64,000 bases of DNA, from assembly GCA_965250285.1 (NCBI GenBank), contig OZ252299.1:5856001-5920000 (forward strand), in the 5' to 3' direction. Each line of letters begins with the position of its first letter. Positions within the stretch are counted from its first letter, which is position 1. The notes under the pieces were generated by a model that saw nothing but the letters and a program-made list of their open reading frames with translations, did no database searches and was not told the DNA's origin. The position numbers and the translations under genes are program-made. The stretch is from Myxococcota bacterium (GTDB lineage: Bacteria > Myxococcota_A > UBA9160 > UBA4427). Positions 1,035 to 8,596 of the stretch are shown here, one piece after another.

Positions 1035-1934
1035 ATGATTTCGCCGTTGTTCGACCCCGATCGCTGGGACCCCGTGTCGGGGTTCGCGTTCGAGGACATC
1101 ACCTATCACCGCGCGAAGGAGCACGGCACCGTCCGGATCGCCTTCGATCGCCCCGACGTGCGCAACGCGTTTCGGCCGCGCACGGTCGACGAGCTGTGCA
1201 CGGCCCTCGATCACGCGCGGATGACGTCGGACGTCGGCTGCGTGCTGCTGACGGGCAATGGCCCCTCGCCGAAGGACGGCGGCTGGGCGTTCTGCTCCGG
1301 TGGGGATCAGCGGATCCGCGGCCGCGACGGCTACCGCTACGCCGAAGGGGAGACCGCCGACACGATCGATCCGGCCCGCTCGGGGCGGCTGCACATCCTC
1401 GAGGCCCAGCGCCTCGTGCGCTTCATGCCCAAGATCGTGATCGCCGTGGTGCCCGGCTGGGCGGTGGGTGGGGGGCACAGCCTGCATGTGACCTGCGACC
1501 TGACCCTCGCGAGCCGCGAGCACGCGGTCTTCAAGCAGACCGACACCGACGTTGCGAGCTTCGACGGTGGGTTCGGCTCGGCCTATCTCGCCCGTCAGGT
1601 CGGCCAGAAGTTCGCCCGCGAGATCTTCTTTCTCGGCCGCGACTACGATGCGCAGAAGGCCTACGAGATGGGGATGGTCAACGAGGTCGTCCCCCACGAT
1701 CGCCTCGAAGAGGTCGCCCTCGACTGGGCCGCCGAGATCAACACGAAGAGCCCCACCGGTCAGCGCATGGCGAAGTACGCGATGAATCTGATCGACGACG
1801 GCCTCGTGGGCCAGCAGGTATTCGCCGGCGAGGCCACTCGGCTCGCCTACATGACGGACGAGGCCGAGGAGGGGCGGGACGCCTTCCTCGAGAAGCGCCC
1901 CCGTGACTTCTCGAAGTTCCCCTGGCACTACTGA
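1035..1934 (+). CDS. menB: 1,4-dihydroxy-2-naphthoyl-CoA synthase
   Basis: Crotonase-family motifs AFCSGGDQRIRG, GWAVGGGHSL, SFDGGFGS, EGRDAFLEKR; SD GGAGG before ATG 1035. Confidence 0.95.
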   Translation: MISPLFDPDRWDPVSGFAFEDITYHRAKEHGTVRIAFDRPDVRNAFRPRTVDELCTALDHARMTSDVGCVLLTGNGPSPKDGGWAFCSGGDQRIRGRDGYRYAEGETADTIDPARSGRLHILEAQRLVRFMPKIVIAVVPGWAVGGGHSLHVTCDLTLASREHAVFKQTDTDVASFDGGFGSAYLARQVGQKFAREIFFLGRDYDAQKAYEMGMVNEVVPHDRLEEVALDWAAEINTKSPTGQRMAKYAMNLIDDGLVGQQVFAGEATRLAYMTDEAEEGRDAFLEKRPRDFSKFPWHY

Positions 1935-1989
1935 CCCACGACGAGCGCTCCGGCGCGTAGAATGGGTGCCGTCAATCGAGGAGAACGAC

Positions 1990-3216
1990 ATGGGCATCGA
2001 TGCACGCACCCGACGACACGCCGACATCCGCAAGCTCACGGTCGCCGAAGTCTTCGACGACGTGCTGCCGTCGGCCGTCGGCCAGCACGGTGATCTCGCA
2101 GCGCACGGCGCGGCGACCCTCGATCTGCCGCCGCTTGCGCTGCGTGCCGAAGGCCGCTCGGTCACGCTGAACCGTCGCGGTCCTGGGCTCGAGCTCGTGG
2201 CGGGCGAGACCGACGCCGCCACTGTGGCCGAGCTCGATGCCCGCGCGCTCTCGAATCTCGTCCAGGATCTGCAGACGACCATGGGCCTCGCGATGAACTC
2301 GCAGGTGAAGATCGTCGAGGGCGGATTCGACGCGTGGATCGGTTGGGAGCCCGTGCTGCGCGCGCTGCTCGACGGTCGCAAGGTCTTCGAGCCGGGCGAC
2401 GTGACGTTCGAGGCCGAAGACGGCTCGCCGCTCGATGTGCACCGGAGCTTCGGCCTCGACGACCCGAGAGAAGAGAAGGCGTGGTTCCTCGAACAGACCG
2501 GCTTTCTGCACGTGCGCGACGTCTTCGAGCCCGACGAGATGGACGCGATCTCGGCCGATCTCGACGCGGCGCTCGCCGAGGCGCGGCCCGACGATGGCGA
2601 GTCGTGGTGGGGCGGCGACGGCGAGGGCCACGAGCAGCCCGTGCGCGTGCTTTGGTTCCACGAGAAGAGCGAAGCGCTCGCGCGGCTGATTCAGGATGGA
2701 CGCCTGCAGTGGATCGCCGATCTGACCGGCGAGACGCACGACGGATCGCGCATCGGGGCCGAGGGCCTGATCAAGCCGCTCGGCATCAAGACCGGGCTCT
2801 CCGATCTGCCCTGGCACAAGGACTGCGGGCAGGGACAGCACTCGTACCGCTGCAGCGGTCTCACGACGGGCATCTCGGTCACCGGCGCCGATCGCGAAAG
2901 CGGTGCGCTGGGGGTCGTGCCCGGTTCGCACCGTGCGAACTGCCGAATCGCGGGCAAGGACCCGATCCTCGATCTCGAGTCGTGGAAGATCGAGACGAAG
3001 CAGGGTGACGTGACGATCCACTGCGGCGACACGCTGCATCGCGCCTACCCGCCGACGAAACAGCCTCGGCGGGTCTGCTACACGCACTTTCCGCTGGCGC
3101 CGCTCGACGGCGACGTCGTGCCCGAGACCGACAAGCGTGAAGAGCGGGCGGCGAGGGCGCGCCTGACGAACGTGCGCGATCGAATCAGCGCGACGGGCGG
3201 CGACGCGCGCGCCTGA
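1990..3216 (+). CDS. Phytanoyl-CoA dioxygenase (PhyH)-family 2OG/Fe(II) enzyme with N-terminal SCP2-like region
   Basis: WHKD (HxD), GALGVVPGSH, GDVTIHCGDTLH; SD GAGGAG and upstream TAGAAT. Confidence 0.75.
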   Translation: MGIDARTRRHADIRKLTVAEVFDDVLPSAVGQHGDLAAHGAATLDLPPLALRAEGRSVTLNRRGPGLELVAGETDAATVAELDARALSNLVQDLQTTMGLAMNSQVKIVEGGFDAWIGWEPVLRALLDGRKVFEPGDVTFEAEDGSPLDVHRSFGLDDPREEKAWFLEQTGFLHVRDVFEPDEMDAISADLDAALAEARPDDGESWWGGDGEGHEQPVRVLWFHEKSEALARLIQDGRLQWIADLTGETHDGSRIGAEGLIKPLGIKTGLSDLPWHKDCGQGQHSYRCSGLTTGISVTGADRESGALGVVPGSHRANCRIAGKDPILDLESWKIETKQGDVTIHCGDTLHRAYPPTKQPRRVCYTHFPLAPLDGDVVPETDKREERAARARLTNVRDRISATGGDARA

Positions 3217-3287
3217 GCGAGGCCGGGCGTTCGCGGTGCACGCGGCGCGCACGCGTGCCCAGGCGTCTCACTCGCTCGTGCACGCCT

Positions 3288-4646
3288 TCAATCGTCTTCG
3301 AGTGTTTCGAGGTAGCCGAGCACGCGCAGGCGTTCGATCGCCTCGGCGTCGATCTCGCCGGGGGCGGGCGCGTCGGTGCCCGGCGCGAGGCCGACGGCCA
3401 GGGCATCGAGGCGTTCTCGGTGCAGTGCGAGCACCTCGGGATGTTCGGCGTGGACGTCGCGGGTCTCGCCGGGGTCGATCTCGAGATCGAAGAGGGCGGG
3501 CGGCCCGCCCTTGCGCGGCCAGACACTCTTGAACCGACCGAGTCGATACGTCTGGTACAGCGCCTCACTGACGAAGAGCTCGGGCTCGGTCTCCCGCGCG
3601 GGGAGCGTCGGGACGCCAGCGGCGATCGAGCGCAGCATCCCCATCAGGTCGTCGCCCCGGATCGTGACGTCGGTGCGGTCGAAGACCGCCGGTCGCACGA
3701 TGAGCGGCACGCGCAGCACCTGCTCGTACGAGGGGTTGCCGAGGTGCCCACCCCGCGGTCGCACGGGGTGCGGCTCGCCGAGCAGCTCGCCGTGATCCGA
3801 GGTCAGCACGATGACCGAGCCCTCGAGCAGGCCCTCTGCCTCGAGAAACGCGACGAGATCACCGAGCCGCTCGTCGAAGAGGGTCACCCCCTTGGCGTAG
3901 CCCTTCTTGAGCAGCGCGTAGTCATGCACGTCGAGGTACTGCGCGTAGAGAAAGAAGCGGTCGCTCGGTCGCTCGCGCAGCACCTCGAAGAGCTCGGTGT
4001 TGAGCGCGAGGCCGGTCCGCGATTCGGCGTGGCGGCGCTGGCTGTTCGACCGCGACTCGGGGTCGGGTGCGAGGCCGATCTCGAGCCAGGCGTCGAAGCC
4101 CTGGGAGAAGCCCATCGGGTCGAAGAGCAGCGGGTTCGCAGTCGCACCGACGGTCCAGTAGCCGGCGGCCTTCATCTGTTCGGCCAGGGTCTCGAGGTGC
4201 AGCGGCACGCAGAGGTCGCCCTCGGTCTCGCGAAAGCGGGCGAGGCCGCACCACGTCTCGGCGGTCCACGGGAGCGATCGATCGTCGCGCCCGAGCTCGA
4301 GGCTCGGCACCTCGCCCGTGAACATCGAGCCCATCGACGTCACCGTCAGATGGAACGACGACAGCGCGTCGGGGAAGACCTGGCCCTGCGCCGCCAGGGC
4401 ATCGAGGTGGGGCGTGGCCACGGCTGCGCCATAGGCGCCCGTCCGATCGGGCCGAAGCGTGTCGGCGACGATGAAGATGATCCGCTCGGGGCCGGGCATC
4501 GGGGCGGGCGCGTCTTGGCAGCCGAGCGCCACCGAGACCAGCAGGCCAAGGGGGAGAAAGAGGGGAAGGCCGAGGCGTCGAACGAACGAAGTTCGTCGAG
4601 GGCAGCTCCCTCCCTTCGGAAGGTGTCGTCGAGCAGCGCACGCCAC
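3288..4646 (-). CDS. Sulfatase-like (alkaline phosphatase superfamily) lipoprotein
   Basis: IFIVADTLRPD, TSDHGE, LRVPLI, LFDLEIDPGE motifs; lipobox-like VALGC. Confidence 0.8.
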   Translation of the reverse strand: MACAARRHLPKGGSCPRRTSFVRRLGLPLFLPLGLLVSVALGCQDAPAPMPGPERIIFIVADTLRPDRTGAYGAAVATPHLDALAAQGQVFPDALSSFHLTVTSMGSMFTGEVPSLELGRDDRSLPWTAETWCGLARFRETEGDLCVPLHLETLAEQMKAAGYWTVGATANPLLFDPMGFSQGFDAWLEIGLAPDPESRSNSQRRHAESRTGLALNTELFEVLRERPSDRFFLYAQYLDVHDYALLKKGYAKGVTLFDERLGDLVAFLEAEGLLEGSVIVLTSDHGELLGEPHPVRPRGGHLGNPSYEQVLRVPLIVRPAVFDRTDVTIRGDDLMGMLRSIAAGVPTLPARETEPELFVSEALYQTYRLGRFKSVWPRKGGPPALFDLEIDPGETRDVHAEHPEVLALHRERLDALAVGLAPGTDAPAPGEIDAEAIERLRVLGYLETLEDD

Positions 4647-4763
4647 GCGGCCACGTTAGCCGCGGCCTCGAGCACCCACCATCGGCTATCGTCGCGGGCC
4701 GACACGCGCGCGGCGTTCATGATCGATGCGGCTGCGCCCTTCCCACCGCCCTCCGGAGCCCCC

Positions 4764-5627
4764 ATGACGAAGACCGCAGGATTCATCGGCCTCGGTGACA
4801 TCGGCAAGCCCCTCGCCGGCAACCTCGCGCCCAAGGGCTTCGACGCGATGGTCTACGACCTCGCGCCCGAGCCGGTCGCCGAGCTCGTCGAAGGCGGGGC
4901 CAAGGCGGCCGCCTCGGCCCGAGAGGTCGGCGCGCACGCCGACGTGATCGGCATCTGCGTCCCCGAAGACGATCACGTCCGCGCCGTGATGCTCGGTGAC
5001 GACGGCCTGCTCGCAGGCGCCCAGGCCGGCACCGTCGTCGCGATCCACTCGACCGTGCAGCCCTCGACGATCGTCGAGCTCGCCGAGATCGGCGCCGAGC
5101 AGGGCGTCGAGGTGATCGACGTCTGCGTGACCGGGGGCGCTGCCCGCGCGGCGGAGGGCACCGTGACCTTTCTCGTCGGTGGCCCCGAAGCGACGCTCGA
5201 GAAGGCGCGGCCGTATCTCGAGGCATCCGCCAGCGACATCATCCATGCGGGTGAGCTCGGCAACGGCGCGAAGCTGAAGCTCTGCATCAACGTCGTGACC
5301 TACATCCAGTGGGCCGCTGCATACGAGGGCATGAAGCTGGCGATGGCTTCCGGGCTCGGGGCCGAGGTGTTCGAGAGCGCGGGGCGCGCCAACGGGCAGC
5401 TGACCGAGCTGCAGCAGCGCTACCTGATCGGCGTGAAGCTGCCGCCCGAGGCGCAGCAGAGCGAGGCCTACCAGAAGGTCGTCACCGGTCACATGCATAC
5501 GGCCGAGAAGGATCTCGCGTGGGCGCTCAAGCTCGCCCACGACAACGGGCTGGCGATGCCCGTCTCTGGCCTCGTGTCGCAGATGATGGCGAAGCTCTAT
5601 GGCGTCGAAGACGCCGGGCGTCGCTGA
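4764..5627 (+). CDS. NAD(P)-dependent beta-hydroxyacid dehydrogenase (3-hydroxyisobutyrate dehydrogenase family)
   Basis: GFIGLGDIG Rossmann motif, DVCVTGG, GNGAKLKLCIN (catalytic Lys), KDL; start trimmed to ATG 4764 with SD GGAG. Confidence 0.85.
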   Translation: MTKTAGFIGLGDIGKPLAGNLAPKGFDAMVYDLAPEPVAELVEGGAKAAASAREVGAHADVIGICVPEDDHVRAVMLGDDGLLAGAQAGTVVAIHSTVQPSTIVELAEIGAEQGVEVIDVCVTGGAARAAEGTVTFLVGGPEATLEKARPYLEASASDIIHAGELGNGAKLKLCINVVTYIQWAAAYEGMKLAMASGLGAEVFESAGRANGQLTELQQRYLIGVKLPPEAQQSEAYQKVVTGHMHTAEKDLAWALKLAHDNGLAMPVSGLVSQMMAKLYGVEDAGRR

Positions 5628-5684
5628 CACGCGGGCCCGGCGACCCGCCGCTCCTGCTCGGCTCGCCGGGTCGGGGACACGTCG

Positions 5685-6557
5685 ATGACGACCGAGGCTC
5701 CGAGTCAGAAGATGTGTGCGTGCAGCGGTGTGCGCTGGTGCGCCGCGTGCCGGGCGCCCGACCGCCGTGCCCACTGGGGCCTACGCGAGCCCGTCGCCGA
5801 GCCCGACTTTCTGCGCGACCGCGCCGTGGCGCCCGGGCGCCGCGCAGACGGCAGCCGCATCCACCTGTTCGACGTGGCGTCGCAGCGCGTCCCGGGGCTC
5901 GAAGGGTTCTCGGGTCTGATGGTCTGGCCCGACTTCGTGAGTGAGGTCGAGGCCGAGGCGCTGCTCGCCGACATCGACGCGCGTCCCTTCCAACCGGCGC
6001 AGAGCGGCAAGGCGAAGCAGCACTTCGGCCCGCGCATGAACTTTCGAAAGCGGCGCATGAACGCGTCGCGTTTCGATGGGCTGCCTCGGTATGCGCGCGC
6101 GCTCGAGGCGCGGGTGCGCCAGCGGCTCGATCCCGCCGCGGCCCCGGCCGGTCTCGTCGAAGCGCTGAATGAGTTCGAGACGACCGACGCGTTCGTCCTG
6201 CGCTACGAGGCCGCTCAGGCGTCGAACCTCGACCCCCATGTCGACGACACGTGGGCCTACGGCGAGCTGATCCTCGCTCTCTCGCTCGAGCGGGACGGCT
6301 GGCTGACTTTTCTCGACGCCGACCCCCAAAATGGTGTCGAACGCCCCTTCGAGTGTGTTCGCGCTCACCTTCCAGCCCGCTCGATGGCGCTGCTCTACGG
6401 CCGTGCGCGGTACGATTGGTTCCACGGCATTCGTGCCCTCGACGTCGTGGGCCGGCGCACCAGCATCACGCTCAGGACGCTTGGCTCATCGCTCCGTTCG
6501 ACCGATGAGGGGAGGGCCGTGCGAGCGCGCGCCGAGCAACAGCTCGCGCCTGTGTGA
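5685..6557 (+). CDS. AlkB-family 2OG/Fe(II) dioxygenase, ALKBH4-like
   Basis: HVD...H...RTSITLR catalytic set; N-terminal CxCxxxxxCxxC; QSGKAKQHFGPRMNFRK block. Confidence 0.85.
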   Translation: MTTEAPSQKMCACSGVRWCAACRAPDRRAHWGLREPVAEPDFLRDRAVAPGRRADGSRIHLFDVASQRVPGLEGFSGLMVWPDFVSEVEAEALLADIDARPFQPAQSGKAKQHFGPRMNFRKRRMNASRFDGLPRYARALEARVRQRLDPAAAPAGLVEALNEFETTDAFVLRYEAAQASNLDPHVDDTWAYGELILALSLERDGWLTFLDADPQNGVERPFECVRAHLPARSMALLYGRARYDWFHGIRALDVVGRRTSITLRTLGSSLRSTDEGRAVRARAEQQLAPV

Positions 6558-6613
6558 CGCTTTCGCGTGACGCGCGCCGATGCGAGGAATCTCAGTCGTC
6601 CGGGGGTGGAGCG

Positions 6614-7909
6614 GTGAAGCGCCAGCGGAACGCAGAGGGTCGAGCGAGCGGGGCACGCATCGGTGTGCGCGCACTGGCGGTCGGAGCCGTCCTCGTCACC
6701 GCGGCCGCTTCGACGGCCCAGGACGCGCCCGGTTCGGCCACTTCGCTGGTGCCTGCTTCACGTCCCCTCGTTGCGGCGCCGACGACGTCGCTCGCGCCCC
6801 GGCCGAACGACCGCGATGCGTTGGTGCGCGACGCGCTGCTGCTCGATTTTGCCGGCTACCACACCGGCGCGGCCGACGTGGTGCGACGGCTCCGCGCGCA
6901 GCGCCCGGGCGATCCTCTCGTCGCGTTGATCGAGGTCGAGCATCGCTTCTGGCTCCAGCTCTACGACGTGGGCCCCGTGCGCGACGACCCCGAGCTCGTT
7001 CGTGCGATCGAGCGCGCGCGGGATCTCGCCAAGGCGAATGCCGAGGCCCATCCCGATGACATCGAGGCCCAGGCGCTCTACGGGCGGGCACTCCTTCACG
7101 ATGCGCGCCGACTGGCCCTCGACGGGTATCTGATGAAAGCCGGCAGTCAGAGCGAGAAGGCGCGTGGCGTGCTCGAGGCGGTCGTTCGTGACGCGCCGAG
7201 AGACCACGACTCGCGATATCTGCTGGGCAACTACTACTACTGGGCCGGCGTCCTGCCCGCTTATCTCAAGTACATCAACTGGCTCTGGTTCGTGCCCCAG
7301 GGCGACAAGCACGAGGGGCTCGTGATGCTCCGTGAGGTCAGCACGAGCGCGAGCCCCTATGCCGAGAGCGCGCAAGTGATGCTGTCGGTCATCGACAGCC
7401 ACCACACGCCGACCGCATTCGAGGCCGCGGCCGACCGCTTGGCCATGCTGGCCGATCGCTACCCCAAGAACGTGCTCGTGCTGCATGAGCTCGTCGATGT
7501 CACGTTCAAGCTCGGCCGCTACGACGAGCTCGATGCGCTGCTCGATCGCATGGCTTCGCGCGCCGACGAGCCGCAGCCCGTGCGCGCCTATGCACTCGTG
7601 GCTGAGATGTGGCGGGCCCGCGCAGCGCTCCATCAGCGCCACGTCGACGAGGCCGAACGTCGCCTCGATGCGCTCATGCTGAACCAGGACGAGCTGCCGA
7701 ACTGGACACTCGCGTGGGTCGACGTGATGCGGGGCCAGATCGCCGATCTACGAGGTCGACGCGACGAGGCGAAGCGGCACTACGAACAGGCGACGAAGCG
7801 CAAGGGGCTCTACGAGAGCCAGCGCGCGACGCGCATGGCCGAGTCGGGTCTCGACGCGCCCTTCGATCCGGATGCGTTCGAGCCGCCGCTGCTCGTCACG
7901 GGCGACTAG
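6614..7909 (+). CDS. Exported TPR-like alpha-helical protein
   Basis: Signal-like N-terminus ending ASTAQD, helical repeats with TPR-like patterns (SRYLLGNYYY, RRDEAKRHYEQA); start uncertain (6554 or 6614). Confidence 0.6.
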   Translation: MKRQRNAEGRASGARIGVRALAVGAVLVTAAASTAQDAPGSATSLVPASRPLVAAPTTSLAPRPNDRDALVRDALLLDFAGYHTGAADVVRRLRAQRPGDPLVALIEVEHRFWLQLYDVGPVRDDPELVRAIERARDLAKANAEAHPDDIEAQALYGRALLHDARRLALDGYLMKAGSQSEKARGVLEAVVRDAPRDHDSRYLLGNYYYWAGVLPAYLKYINWLWFVPQGDKHEGLVMLREVSTSASPYAESAQVMLSVIDSHHTPTAFEAAADRLAMLADRYPKNVLVLHELVDVTFKLGRYDELDALLDRMASRADEPQPVRAYALVAEMWRARAALHQRHVDEAERRLDALMLNQDELPNWTLAWVDVMRGQIADLRGRRDEAKRHYEQATKRKGLYESQRATRMAESGLDAPFDPDAFEPPLLVTGD

Positions 7910-7984
7910 CGACGCACGGCAAGAGAGCCGCCGAATCGATCGGCCGGATCCGTACGTGCATCGACGTCGACGGTGGAGCCGGCG

Positions 7985-8596
7985 CTACGCGGCGCCCGGC
8001 GCCGACGTCATCTTCTTCTGCTCTCGCCGCATGTCGGCGTCTTCGTACAGCTTGTGCACGACGTCGAGCGCGACGAGCAGCCGCGCGTACAGGCGAATCT
8101 TCACGCTCTCGAGGCACGCGTAGGCCATCAGCGCGAAGATGCTCGAGGTCAGGGCGACCGCGAGGGCGCCGAGCTCGAGCGACGTGCTGCCGAAGTGCAT
8201 CGACAGGAAGAGGATCAGCATGCCGCCGGTCGTCCCGATGAAGCCGATCGGCGGCAGCAGGCCCGCGACCATCGTGATCGGTGTCGCGTAGTGCGTCTCG
8301 TACTCGTTCATCACGTACTGGCGCGTGGCGTCGTAGATGAAGTCGCTCGGATGGCCGTGCGCCTCGTTCTCGCGCAGGGCCTTCTGCAGCGTGCGCATCA
8401 GCAGACCCGCCAGGGGCTCGACGCGCGCACCGGTGCCTGCAGCCTTCGCCAGCTCGGCCTTGTTGAGGCAGCGGGTGGCCTGCCACGCCTGCAAGCAGGT
8501 CTTGAGCCCCTTCATGAAGGGCACCCAGACCGCGACCAGCGCGGCCAGGGAGACCACCCAGGTCATCATCGCATCGCCCGAGAGCAGCTCGCTCAC
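7985..8596 (-). CDS. MotA/TolQ/ExbB-family proton channel subunit
   Basis: Three hydrophobic segments; LLPPIGFIGTTGGM matches the PxxGxxGTxxGM motif; ALAVALTSS in the last TM; SD AAGGAG. Confidence 0.85.
   Translation of the reverse strand: MSELLSGDAMMTWVVSLAALVAVWVPFMKGLKTCLQAWQATRCLNKAELAKAAGTGARVEPLAGLLMRTLQKALRENEAHGHPSDFIYDATRQYVMNEYETHYATPITMVAGLLPPIGFIGTTGGMLILFLSMHFGSTSLELGALAVALTSSIFALMAYACLESVKIRLYARLLVALDVVHKLYEDADMRREQKKMTSAPGAA

Follow-up and report, generated by a model that had tools for sequence, protein, structure and literature searches.

A chromosomal gene for an ALKBH4/NMAD-1-type dioxygenase in a small group of Myxococcota genera

The DNA analysed here, referred to as the window, is a stretch of 64,000 nucleotides from the forward strand of a Myxococcota bacterium genome (assembly GCA_965250285.1, contig OZ252299.1, positions 5,856,001 to 5,920,000). 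Close to its left end lies a gene for a 290-residue protein that resembles eukaryotic ALKBH4, which belongs to the AlkB family of Fe(II)/2-oxoglutarate (2OG) dioxygenases. Residues were compared with those of Caenorhabditis elegans NMAD-1A (PDB 8HB2, 8HAZ, 8HBB, 8H68), the nematode ALKBH4 orthologue and a DNA N6-methyladenine (6mA) demethylase, and in two alignments: A1, whose 17 mixed rows comprise 11 bacterial and 6 eukaryotic proteins, and a larger one of 98 rows. The gene and its conserved elements are as follows, with nucleotides numbered in the window and residues in the protein.

5685..6557 (+): ALKBH4/NMAD-1-type Fe(II)/2OG dioxygenase gene; ATG start and 290 residues plus stop in the list of open reading frames (ORFs)
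5715..5750 (+): CxCxGxRxCxxC motif (C11, C13, C19, C22), a module predicted to bind zinc, by which the ALKBH4 clade is defined; invariant, with G15 and R17, in A1
6000..6050 (+): QSGKAKQHFGPRMNFRK, nucleotide-recognition-lid block with the bacterial signature KQH[FY]; Q106, S107, G108, K111, G115 and F120 invariant in A1
6237..6245 (+): H185-x-D187 of the iron-binding triad; invariant in the 98 rows and aligned with NMAD-1A His-184/Asp-186
6423..6425 (+): H247, the distal iron ligand; invariant in the 98 rows and aligned with NMAD-1A His-239
6456..6476 (+): R258...R264 (RRTSITLR), 2OG-binding arginines; invariant in the 98 rows and aligned with NMAD-1A Arg-250/Arg-256
6486..6533 (+): C-terminal helices, residues 268-283, counterpart of the NMAD-1A C-terminal domain (CTD); helices at 268-271 and 274-283 in the structure model

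The protein is colinear with NMAD-1A from the Cys motif to the C-terminal helix. H185, D187, H247, R258 and R264 are invariant in A1 as well, and Y174, a further 2OG ligand, is invariant in the 98 rows and aligns with NMAD-1A Tyr-173. In NMAD-1A, mutation of the Mn and alpha-ketoglutarate ligands abolished activity, R256A excepted, and mutation of the C8/C10 pair, to which C11 and C13 correspond, lowered it (PMC10815869, cited in extracts here and below). The nematode enzyme requires both its zinc finger domain and its CTD, the latter a support of the Flip2 lid; the zinc finger domain is termed 'hypothetical' in that source, which left its structure unsolved (PMC10815869). Towards the C-terminus, every bacterial and eukaryotic row of A1 has G276, and almost every one has A283. 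Nothing is missing from the set of iron and 2OG ligands, and the Cys4 motif and C-terminal helix are likewise intact.

The initial annotation, made from the sequence alone, had identified the protein as a bacterial ALKBH4 from six blocks (MCACSGVRWCAAC, FSGLMVWPDFVSEVE, QSGKAKQHFGPRMNFRK, LDPHVDDTWAYGE, LPARSMALLYGRARYDWFHGI and RRTSITLR), all of which are present in the 290-residue translation, and had set beside them five blocks attributed to human ALKBH4. Three of these five occur verbatim in hare ALKBH4 (P0348), each being found in four of six non-human mammalian ALKBH4 proteins. The last two are verbatim in none of the six, though the aligned regions are homologous. The N-terminal four-Cys motif to which it pointed is the same in every row of A1, bacterial or eukaryotic, and is missing from AlkB. 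Its further claim of kinship with ALKBH4 is upheld by the searches and the tree described below.

In a phmmer search of PDB sequences, C. elegans NMAD-1 (8hb2_A) was matched at E=1.4e-25 over query residues 7-267, with the Cys block covered; the next family was ALKBH8 at E=0.0045, and no further AlkB type appeared at E<=10. A profile of 25 bacterial members gave NMAD-1 at 7.3e-45 and ALKBH8 at 2.2e-12, followed by ALKBH3 (2e-6), ALKBH5 (1e-5), ALKBH6 (9e-5), ALKBH2 (5e-4) and ALKBH7 (1e-3), while E. coli AlkB, ALKBH1 and FTO were absent at E<=1. An AlphaFold2 model computed from the 98-row alignment has a mean predicted local distance difference test score (pLDDT) of 96.6 and a predicted template modelling score (pTM) of 0.93, with a mean pLDDT of 98 for residues 11-20. 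With Foldseek, NMAD-1 chains take all of ranks 1-6 (best E=9.4e-22, TM 0.80 on target), after which come ALKBH5 at 2.2e-12 and then ALKBH8, 3, 6, 7, Ofd2 and AlkB. The E-value gap to the next paralogue is at least 10 orders of magnitude in sequence, profile and fold searches, and the three best clusters in the ESM Atlas are eukaryotic ALKBH4. With hmmscan against Pfam, the protein gave only a sub-threshold PhyH match (E=0.18) and nothing for PF13532, the AlkB family, at E<=1. The curated PF13532 cut-off (31.2 bits) is not reached, a six-frame search of the genome with PF13532 returned no match at E<=0.01, and NCBIfam held nothing relevant for the protein. The AlkBH4 clade has been defined by its N-terminal Zn-binding domain (Iyer et al., PMC4738411, cited in extracts). 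We conclude that the ORF almost certainly encodes a protein of the ALKBH4/NMAD-1 clade and not an ordinary bacterial AlkB. E. coli AlkB and the bacterial PF13532 proteins share the double-stranded beta-helix and the HxD...H/Arg chemistry (Foldseek AlkB 3t3y, E=3.6e-9), but AlkB has neither the Cys motif nor the CTD, and the longest branch of the tree parts the two groups.

A word-indexed search recovered 82 bacterial homologues, all from metagenome-assembled genomes (MAGs) or metagenomes; the four named by NCBI carry the taxon labels Myxococcota, Deltaproteobacteria or 'bacterium'. In an exhaustive HMMER search the number of representatives was 817 at a cut-off of E<=1e-3 and fell to 264 at E<=1e-10 and to 26 at E<=1e-30. 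The first 22 or so are bacterial, with 40-57% identity; behind them, the matches with names are ALKBH4 of lamprey, a hemichordate, Colponema, the sponge Sycon, Globodera, sturgeon and a tardigrade. Further named ALKBH4 relatives came from the haptophyte Diacronema, Picozoa, the kinetoplastid Cryptobia, a snail and a fluke, and the eukaryotic range spans Metazoa, Haptista, Euglenozoa, Picozoa and colponemids.

The bacterial distribution, in contrast to this wide range, is narrow and confined to a small group of genera. A scan of 185,579 species genomes gave 30 loci, in which the bacterial copies have diverged to 44-54% identity. By title, 23 are Myxococcota, Myxococcales or Deltaproteobacteria, six are 'uncultured Spirochaetaceae' and one is 'bacterium', and two contigs of the first group (L004 = G268:C4 and L013 = G368:C8) match genomes placed in the window's own family. 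The six 'uncultured Spirochaetaceae bacterium' loci (L001, L007, L008, L010, L019 and L027) all come from third-party co-assemblies. L001 is syntenic with the window, whose family holds MAGs titled Myxococcota or Deltaproteobacteria. The Spirochaetaceae titles seem to be labelling errors. When the phylum was sampled evenly, 10 of 401 genomes, from 2 of 255 genera, matched the gene at E<=1e-10, all within the window's family: genus g1, to which the window belongs, and g5, which accounts for nine of the ten carriers. A sample of the family gave 9 carriers among 41 genomes, spread over 3 of 19 genera (g1, 2/2; g5, 6/6; g272, 1/1). As for the Cys motif, in all but one of the 30 genomic loci the match starts at query residue 11 or before it, the thirtieth being cut by its contig end, and the motif is present in 50 of the 82 bacterial protein models, the other 32 of which all begin downstream of its position. 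Selection was measured on the window gene and 16 of the 30 loci by the Nei-Gojobori (NG86) method. Of the 15 least diverged pairs, 14 gave a finite ratio of nonsynonymous to synonymous divergence (dN/dS), with values of 0.13-0.37, and the window gene differs from L001 by dN 0.22 and dS 0.76. This is a real bacterial chromosomal gene under purifying selection.

A FastTree phylogeny of 133 rows took in 15 of the 82 bacterial matches, representatives P0098-P0227 of 230-480 residues and nine named animals. It recovered a bacterial clade of 16 rows (99*) within a 41-row group of unnamed and protist sequences. A more careful tree was computed under LG+C20+F+G4 with posterior mean site frequencies (PMSF) and 1000 ultrafast bootstraps, which had not fully settled (correlation 0.976). 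Its 74 hand-chosen rows comprised the window protein, 14 other bacterial proteins, 19 named eukaryotes, 32 sequences then unnamed and eight outgroups; three of the 32 were named later, which brings the named eukaryotes to 22. The outgroups were seven of ten AlkB domains from the same order plus E. coli AlkB; ALKBH1-3 and 5-8 were compared through the PDB searches only. Bacterial and eukaryotic ALKBH4 proteins together form an ingroup separated from the eight AlkB outgroups with support of 99/98*, and the bacterial clade within it is monophyletic at 100/99*. The window protein thus stands with ALKBH4 and outside the ordinary bacterial AlkB groups, the placement that the initial annotation had predicted.

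For the unnamed sequences nearest the bacteria (P0100, P0104, P0107, P0123, P0135, P0205 and P0215), cluster look-ups gave no names. A metagenome scan with an alignment of these sequences found one weak locus, L043, with 21 residues covered. In a protein search the same alignment returned as named matches only a Trichinella protein and one EukProt entry (the Picozoa sequence), and in the ESM Atlas the sequences retrieved the same animal clusters as the window protein. Their contigs, at about 1 kb, barely exceed the ORF, as would fit transcripts. P0107, an environmental protein of 266 residues on contigs of 961 and 3239 bases, is 36% identical to the window protein, carries the bacterial signatures RWCARC and DDTFAYG and has a basal position in the ALKBH4 tree; it may come from a second bacterial lineage or from kin of the donor.

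Within this shared architecture the bacterial proteins differ from their eukaryotic relatives in consistent ways. Vertebrate and other eukaryotic ALKBH4 proteins (KEGG K10766) have in common with them CxCxGxRxCxxC, present in 122 of the 123 eukaryote-type proteins, as well as the QSGxxKQxxGPxxNF block, HxDD and RxxxxxR, with identities of 29-36% in A1. A further CxxC within 70 residues is found in 51 of 122 eukaryote-type proteins versus 5 of 50 bacterial ones. The lid reads QSG[KR]xKQH[FY] in 74 of 82 bacterial and none of 123 eukaryote-type proteins, and QSG[KR]xKQ[DN][FY] in none of the 82 and 122 of the 123. NMAD-1A itself is only 21-22% identical by Foldseek and has KQDY in the lid and DDMWIWG at the iron-site flank, where the window protein has KQHF and DDTWAYG. 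It also binds nucleosomes (PMC10815869), whereas the bacterial host has none.

Oxidative N-demethylation is established AlkB-family chemistry. If the window protein follows it, an Fe(IV)-oxo species would hydroxylate an N-methyl group, and formaldehyde would then be lost. The methyl group would most likely be taken off adenine in unpaired DNA or RNA; NMAD-1A demethylates 6mA and prefers bubble or bulge DNA (PMC10815869). Homology with NMAD-1A makes an N-methylated nucleic acid a plausible substrate, a proposal on which we judge the balance to be even. Our overall reading is of an intact ALKBH4/NMAD-1 Fe(II)/2OG dioxygenase, the gene for which would have been gained long ago from a eukaryote and kept under purifying selection, and which is predicted to act as an N-demethylase, with adenine in unpaired DNA or RNA the likeliest target. 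As a whole we give it the same evenly balanced credence.

Two accounts of where the gene comes from compete with acquisition from a eukaryote. An ordinary bacterial AlkB would fit the precomputed Pfam assignments, which give PF13532 to 64 of the 82 bacterial homologues, and the NCBI name 'dioxygenase AlkB' carried by four of them, but the window protein falls below PF13532 and the family profile has no E. coli AlkB match at E<=1. A eukaryotic contaminant in the assembly would have to sit inside a single contig of 6,248,917 bases (95.4% completeness) between bacterial genes (a PhyH-type dioxygenase, a sulfatase, a 3-hydroxyisobutyrate-dehydrogenase-like and an ExbB-like gene) of matching GC; the gene has a GC content of 0.698 and 0.83 at third codon positions (GC3), and the GC3 of its neighbours is 0.83-0.95. 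It would also have to recur, without stops, in 30 genomes. Both variants are extremely improbable, and we regard them as ruled out by the profile search, the contig setting and the recurrence. The other account reverses the transfer: the ALKBH4 clade would have arisen in such bacteria and passed to an early eukaryote, the window gene being the donor's descendant. Several results tell for it and against a eukaryotic origin. When the careful tree is rooted on the outgroups, P0107, with its bacterial signature DDTFAYG, branches deepest. The bacterial clade comes next, as sister (86/85) of a 50-row clade in which all 22 named eukaryotes fall and P0100/P0104 come first. The unnamed sequences nearest the bacteria (P0107, P0100, P0104) are assigned to neither domain of life. 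The approximately unbiased (AU) test did not reject a topology that unites the non-bacterial rows in a single clade and hence makes the bacteria sister to all other rows (delta lnL 10.3, p-AU 0.236), and the GC of the gene is fully host-like. However, the test did not reject either a root on the kinetoplastid-bearing clade, a group picked after the tree was seen, with bacteria nested within eukaryotes (delta lnL 8.9, p=0.153). Since neither root is rejected, the direction of transfer is not fixed by the tree, which is compatible with both origins offered in the initial annotation, inter-domain transfer and a bacterial source lineage. The very long outgroup branch (1.46 plus 2.3-4.2 changes per column) makes the outgroup root weak. 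Only 3 of 19 family genera have the gene, and in the phylum sample none of the remaining 253 genera has it. The published analyses in PMC8868631, cited in extracts, derive ALKBH4 from duplications within eukaryotes, and published schemes treat it as a eukaryotic clade (PMC4738411; PMC8868631). Host-like GC, taken with the divergence among bacterial copies, indicates that the bacterial clade is old. A bacterial source lineage seems unlikely to us. The narrowness of the bacterial range, set against the wide eukaryotic one, leads us to favour transfer from a eukaryote to a bacterium, which on distribution is the somewhat more probable course.

The substrate has to be weighed in the same way, and a number of observations count against N-methylated nucleic acid. 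The iron-site flank reads DDx[FW][AG]YG in 63 of 82 bacterial and none of 123 eukaryote-type proteins, and DDxWxWG in none of the 82 and all of the 123. NMAD-1A Met-188, proposed to stack on 6mA (PMC10815869), aligns with Thr-189 here. With signature positions in the lid and beside the iron ligands, the substrate pocket may differ from that of eukaryotic ALKBH4. The neighbouring genes are metabolic, are not kept between genera and give no functional hint. Six-frame searches of the genome found no Dam (PF02086) and no N6_Mtase (PF02384), and one partial N6_N4_Mtase match (C1:3596954-3597124). An MT-A70 search gave no match either, a negative that is uninformative because the control matched nowhere. 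Adenine methyltransferase matches are few for a 6.2-Mb bacterial genome. Finally, human ALKBH4 is cited as an actin K84me1 demethylase (PMC10815869; PMC8868631). This activity, the clade-wide change of residues beside the iron site and the small number of adenine methyltransferase families detected would suit a demethylase of methyl-lysine in some bacterial protein, as human ALKBH4 is reported to be for actin. We think this improbable, given that the lid block and CTD, which NMAD-1A uses for DNA, are conserved and that the genome has no eukaryote-type actin (PF00022), only a weak MreB-grade match (E=1.8e-7) of the kind also seen in E. coli and four other controls. The enzyme might instead stand in for AlkB and repair 1-methyladenine and 3-methylcytosine in genera without the canonical enzyme. 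Canonical AlkB (PF13532, E<1e-30) is present in the sister genera g7 (4/4) and g3 (3/4) and absent from g1 (0/2) and g5, where the single weak match among six genomes is the ALKBH4-like gene. The pattern is nevertheless not complementary, since 13 of the 19 genera in the family sample have no match of either kind and g8 has two weak matches below the Pfam cut-off. There is no ada, alkA or other repair gene among the neighbours, and the ALKBH4-specific N- and C-terminal modules are kept. A repair role therefore appears doubtful, and demethylation of nucleic acid, probably at adenine, is the activity we prefer.

ALKBH4 is among the least understood of the AlkB homologues, and 6mA in animals is contested. 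The enzyme has been credited with both actin lysine and DNA 6mA demethylation (PMC8868631; PMC10815869). A compact orthologue with three clade-specific modules and a high-confidence model, in a cell without nucleosomes or eukaryotic actin, would be a clean system for the conserved core function and a simple bacterial model of an enzyme over whose true target there is dispute. To our knowledge, bacterial adenine methylation has been treated as removable only by replication. We suggest, tentatively and with low confidence, that the enzyme erases N6-methyladenine from the cell's own DNA or RNA, and that its clade may further represent the bacterial partner in the transfer by which eukaryotes came to have ALKBH4. 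If the former is true, adenine methylation would be enzymatically reversible in this lineage. A bacterial clade at or near the base of ALKBH4 is in either case of interest, as an instance of eukaryote-to-bacterium transfer or as a candidate donor lineage. In databases the name is already in use: among the 82 bacterial homologues, JGI automatic annotation gives the name 'alkB family protein 4' to 11 and the name 'DNA N6-methyl adenine demethylase' to one. In literature on ALKBH4 with bacteria, phylogeny, myxobacteria or horizontal transfer (supplements not covered), we found no description of a bacterial ALKBH4; the extracts of PMC11458739 mention ALKBH4 once, for cell location only. The initial annotation had allowed that such orthologues might already be well described in bacteria, and, automatic names aside, the literature covered here does not describe them.

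Two further features adjoin the gene.

5673..5677 (+): GGGGA, 7 nt upstream of the ATG, which might serve as a ribosome-binding site; read from the sequence, with a presumed function
6554..7909 (+): downstream ORF of 451 residues; its GTG start shares 4 nt with the dioxygenase stop, and it is a neighbour and at most a putative functional partner

The downstream ORF has no Pfam family, and its N-terminal stretch is hydrophobic and signal-like. It is kept in place only at the same-genus locus L001, with 68% identity. Scans of positions 4500-8100 for sigma-70 promoters and terminators found none of either. PADLOC assigned no defence family to the dioxygenase gene and gave only chance-level matches for its two neighbours. 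A look-up of sequencing runs listed no RNA run with the sequence and three DNA-type runs, all from a single study. Synteny with the window is limited to L001; in other genera the flanks hold DUF7064/7065 (14 loci), BtrH_N/DUF4872 (6 loci) and WS/DGAT (14 loci) genes and CoA-transferases.

Between the window and L001 the region upstream of the gene has changed. Positions 3217-5684 of the window hold a sulfatase gene (3288-4646, -) and the 3-hydroxyisobutyrate-dehydrogenase-like gene (about 4749-5627, +), neither of which has a BLAST counterpart in the otherwise syntenic L001 (4189-5952), so it has been gained or replaced since the split of the two species. Beyond it, 2.5 kb upstream of the ALKBH4-like gene, lies a second Fe/2OG-type dioxygenase gene (1903-3216, +), which encodes a 437-residue protein with a PhyH (phytanoyl-CoA dioxygenase) domain (E=5e-14) that is 81% identical to its counterpart at L001.

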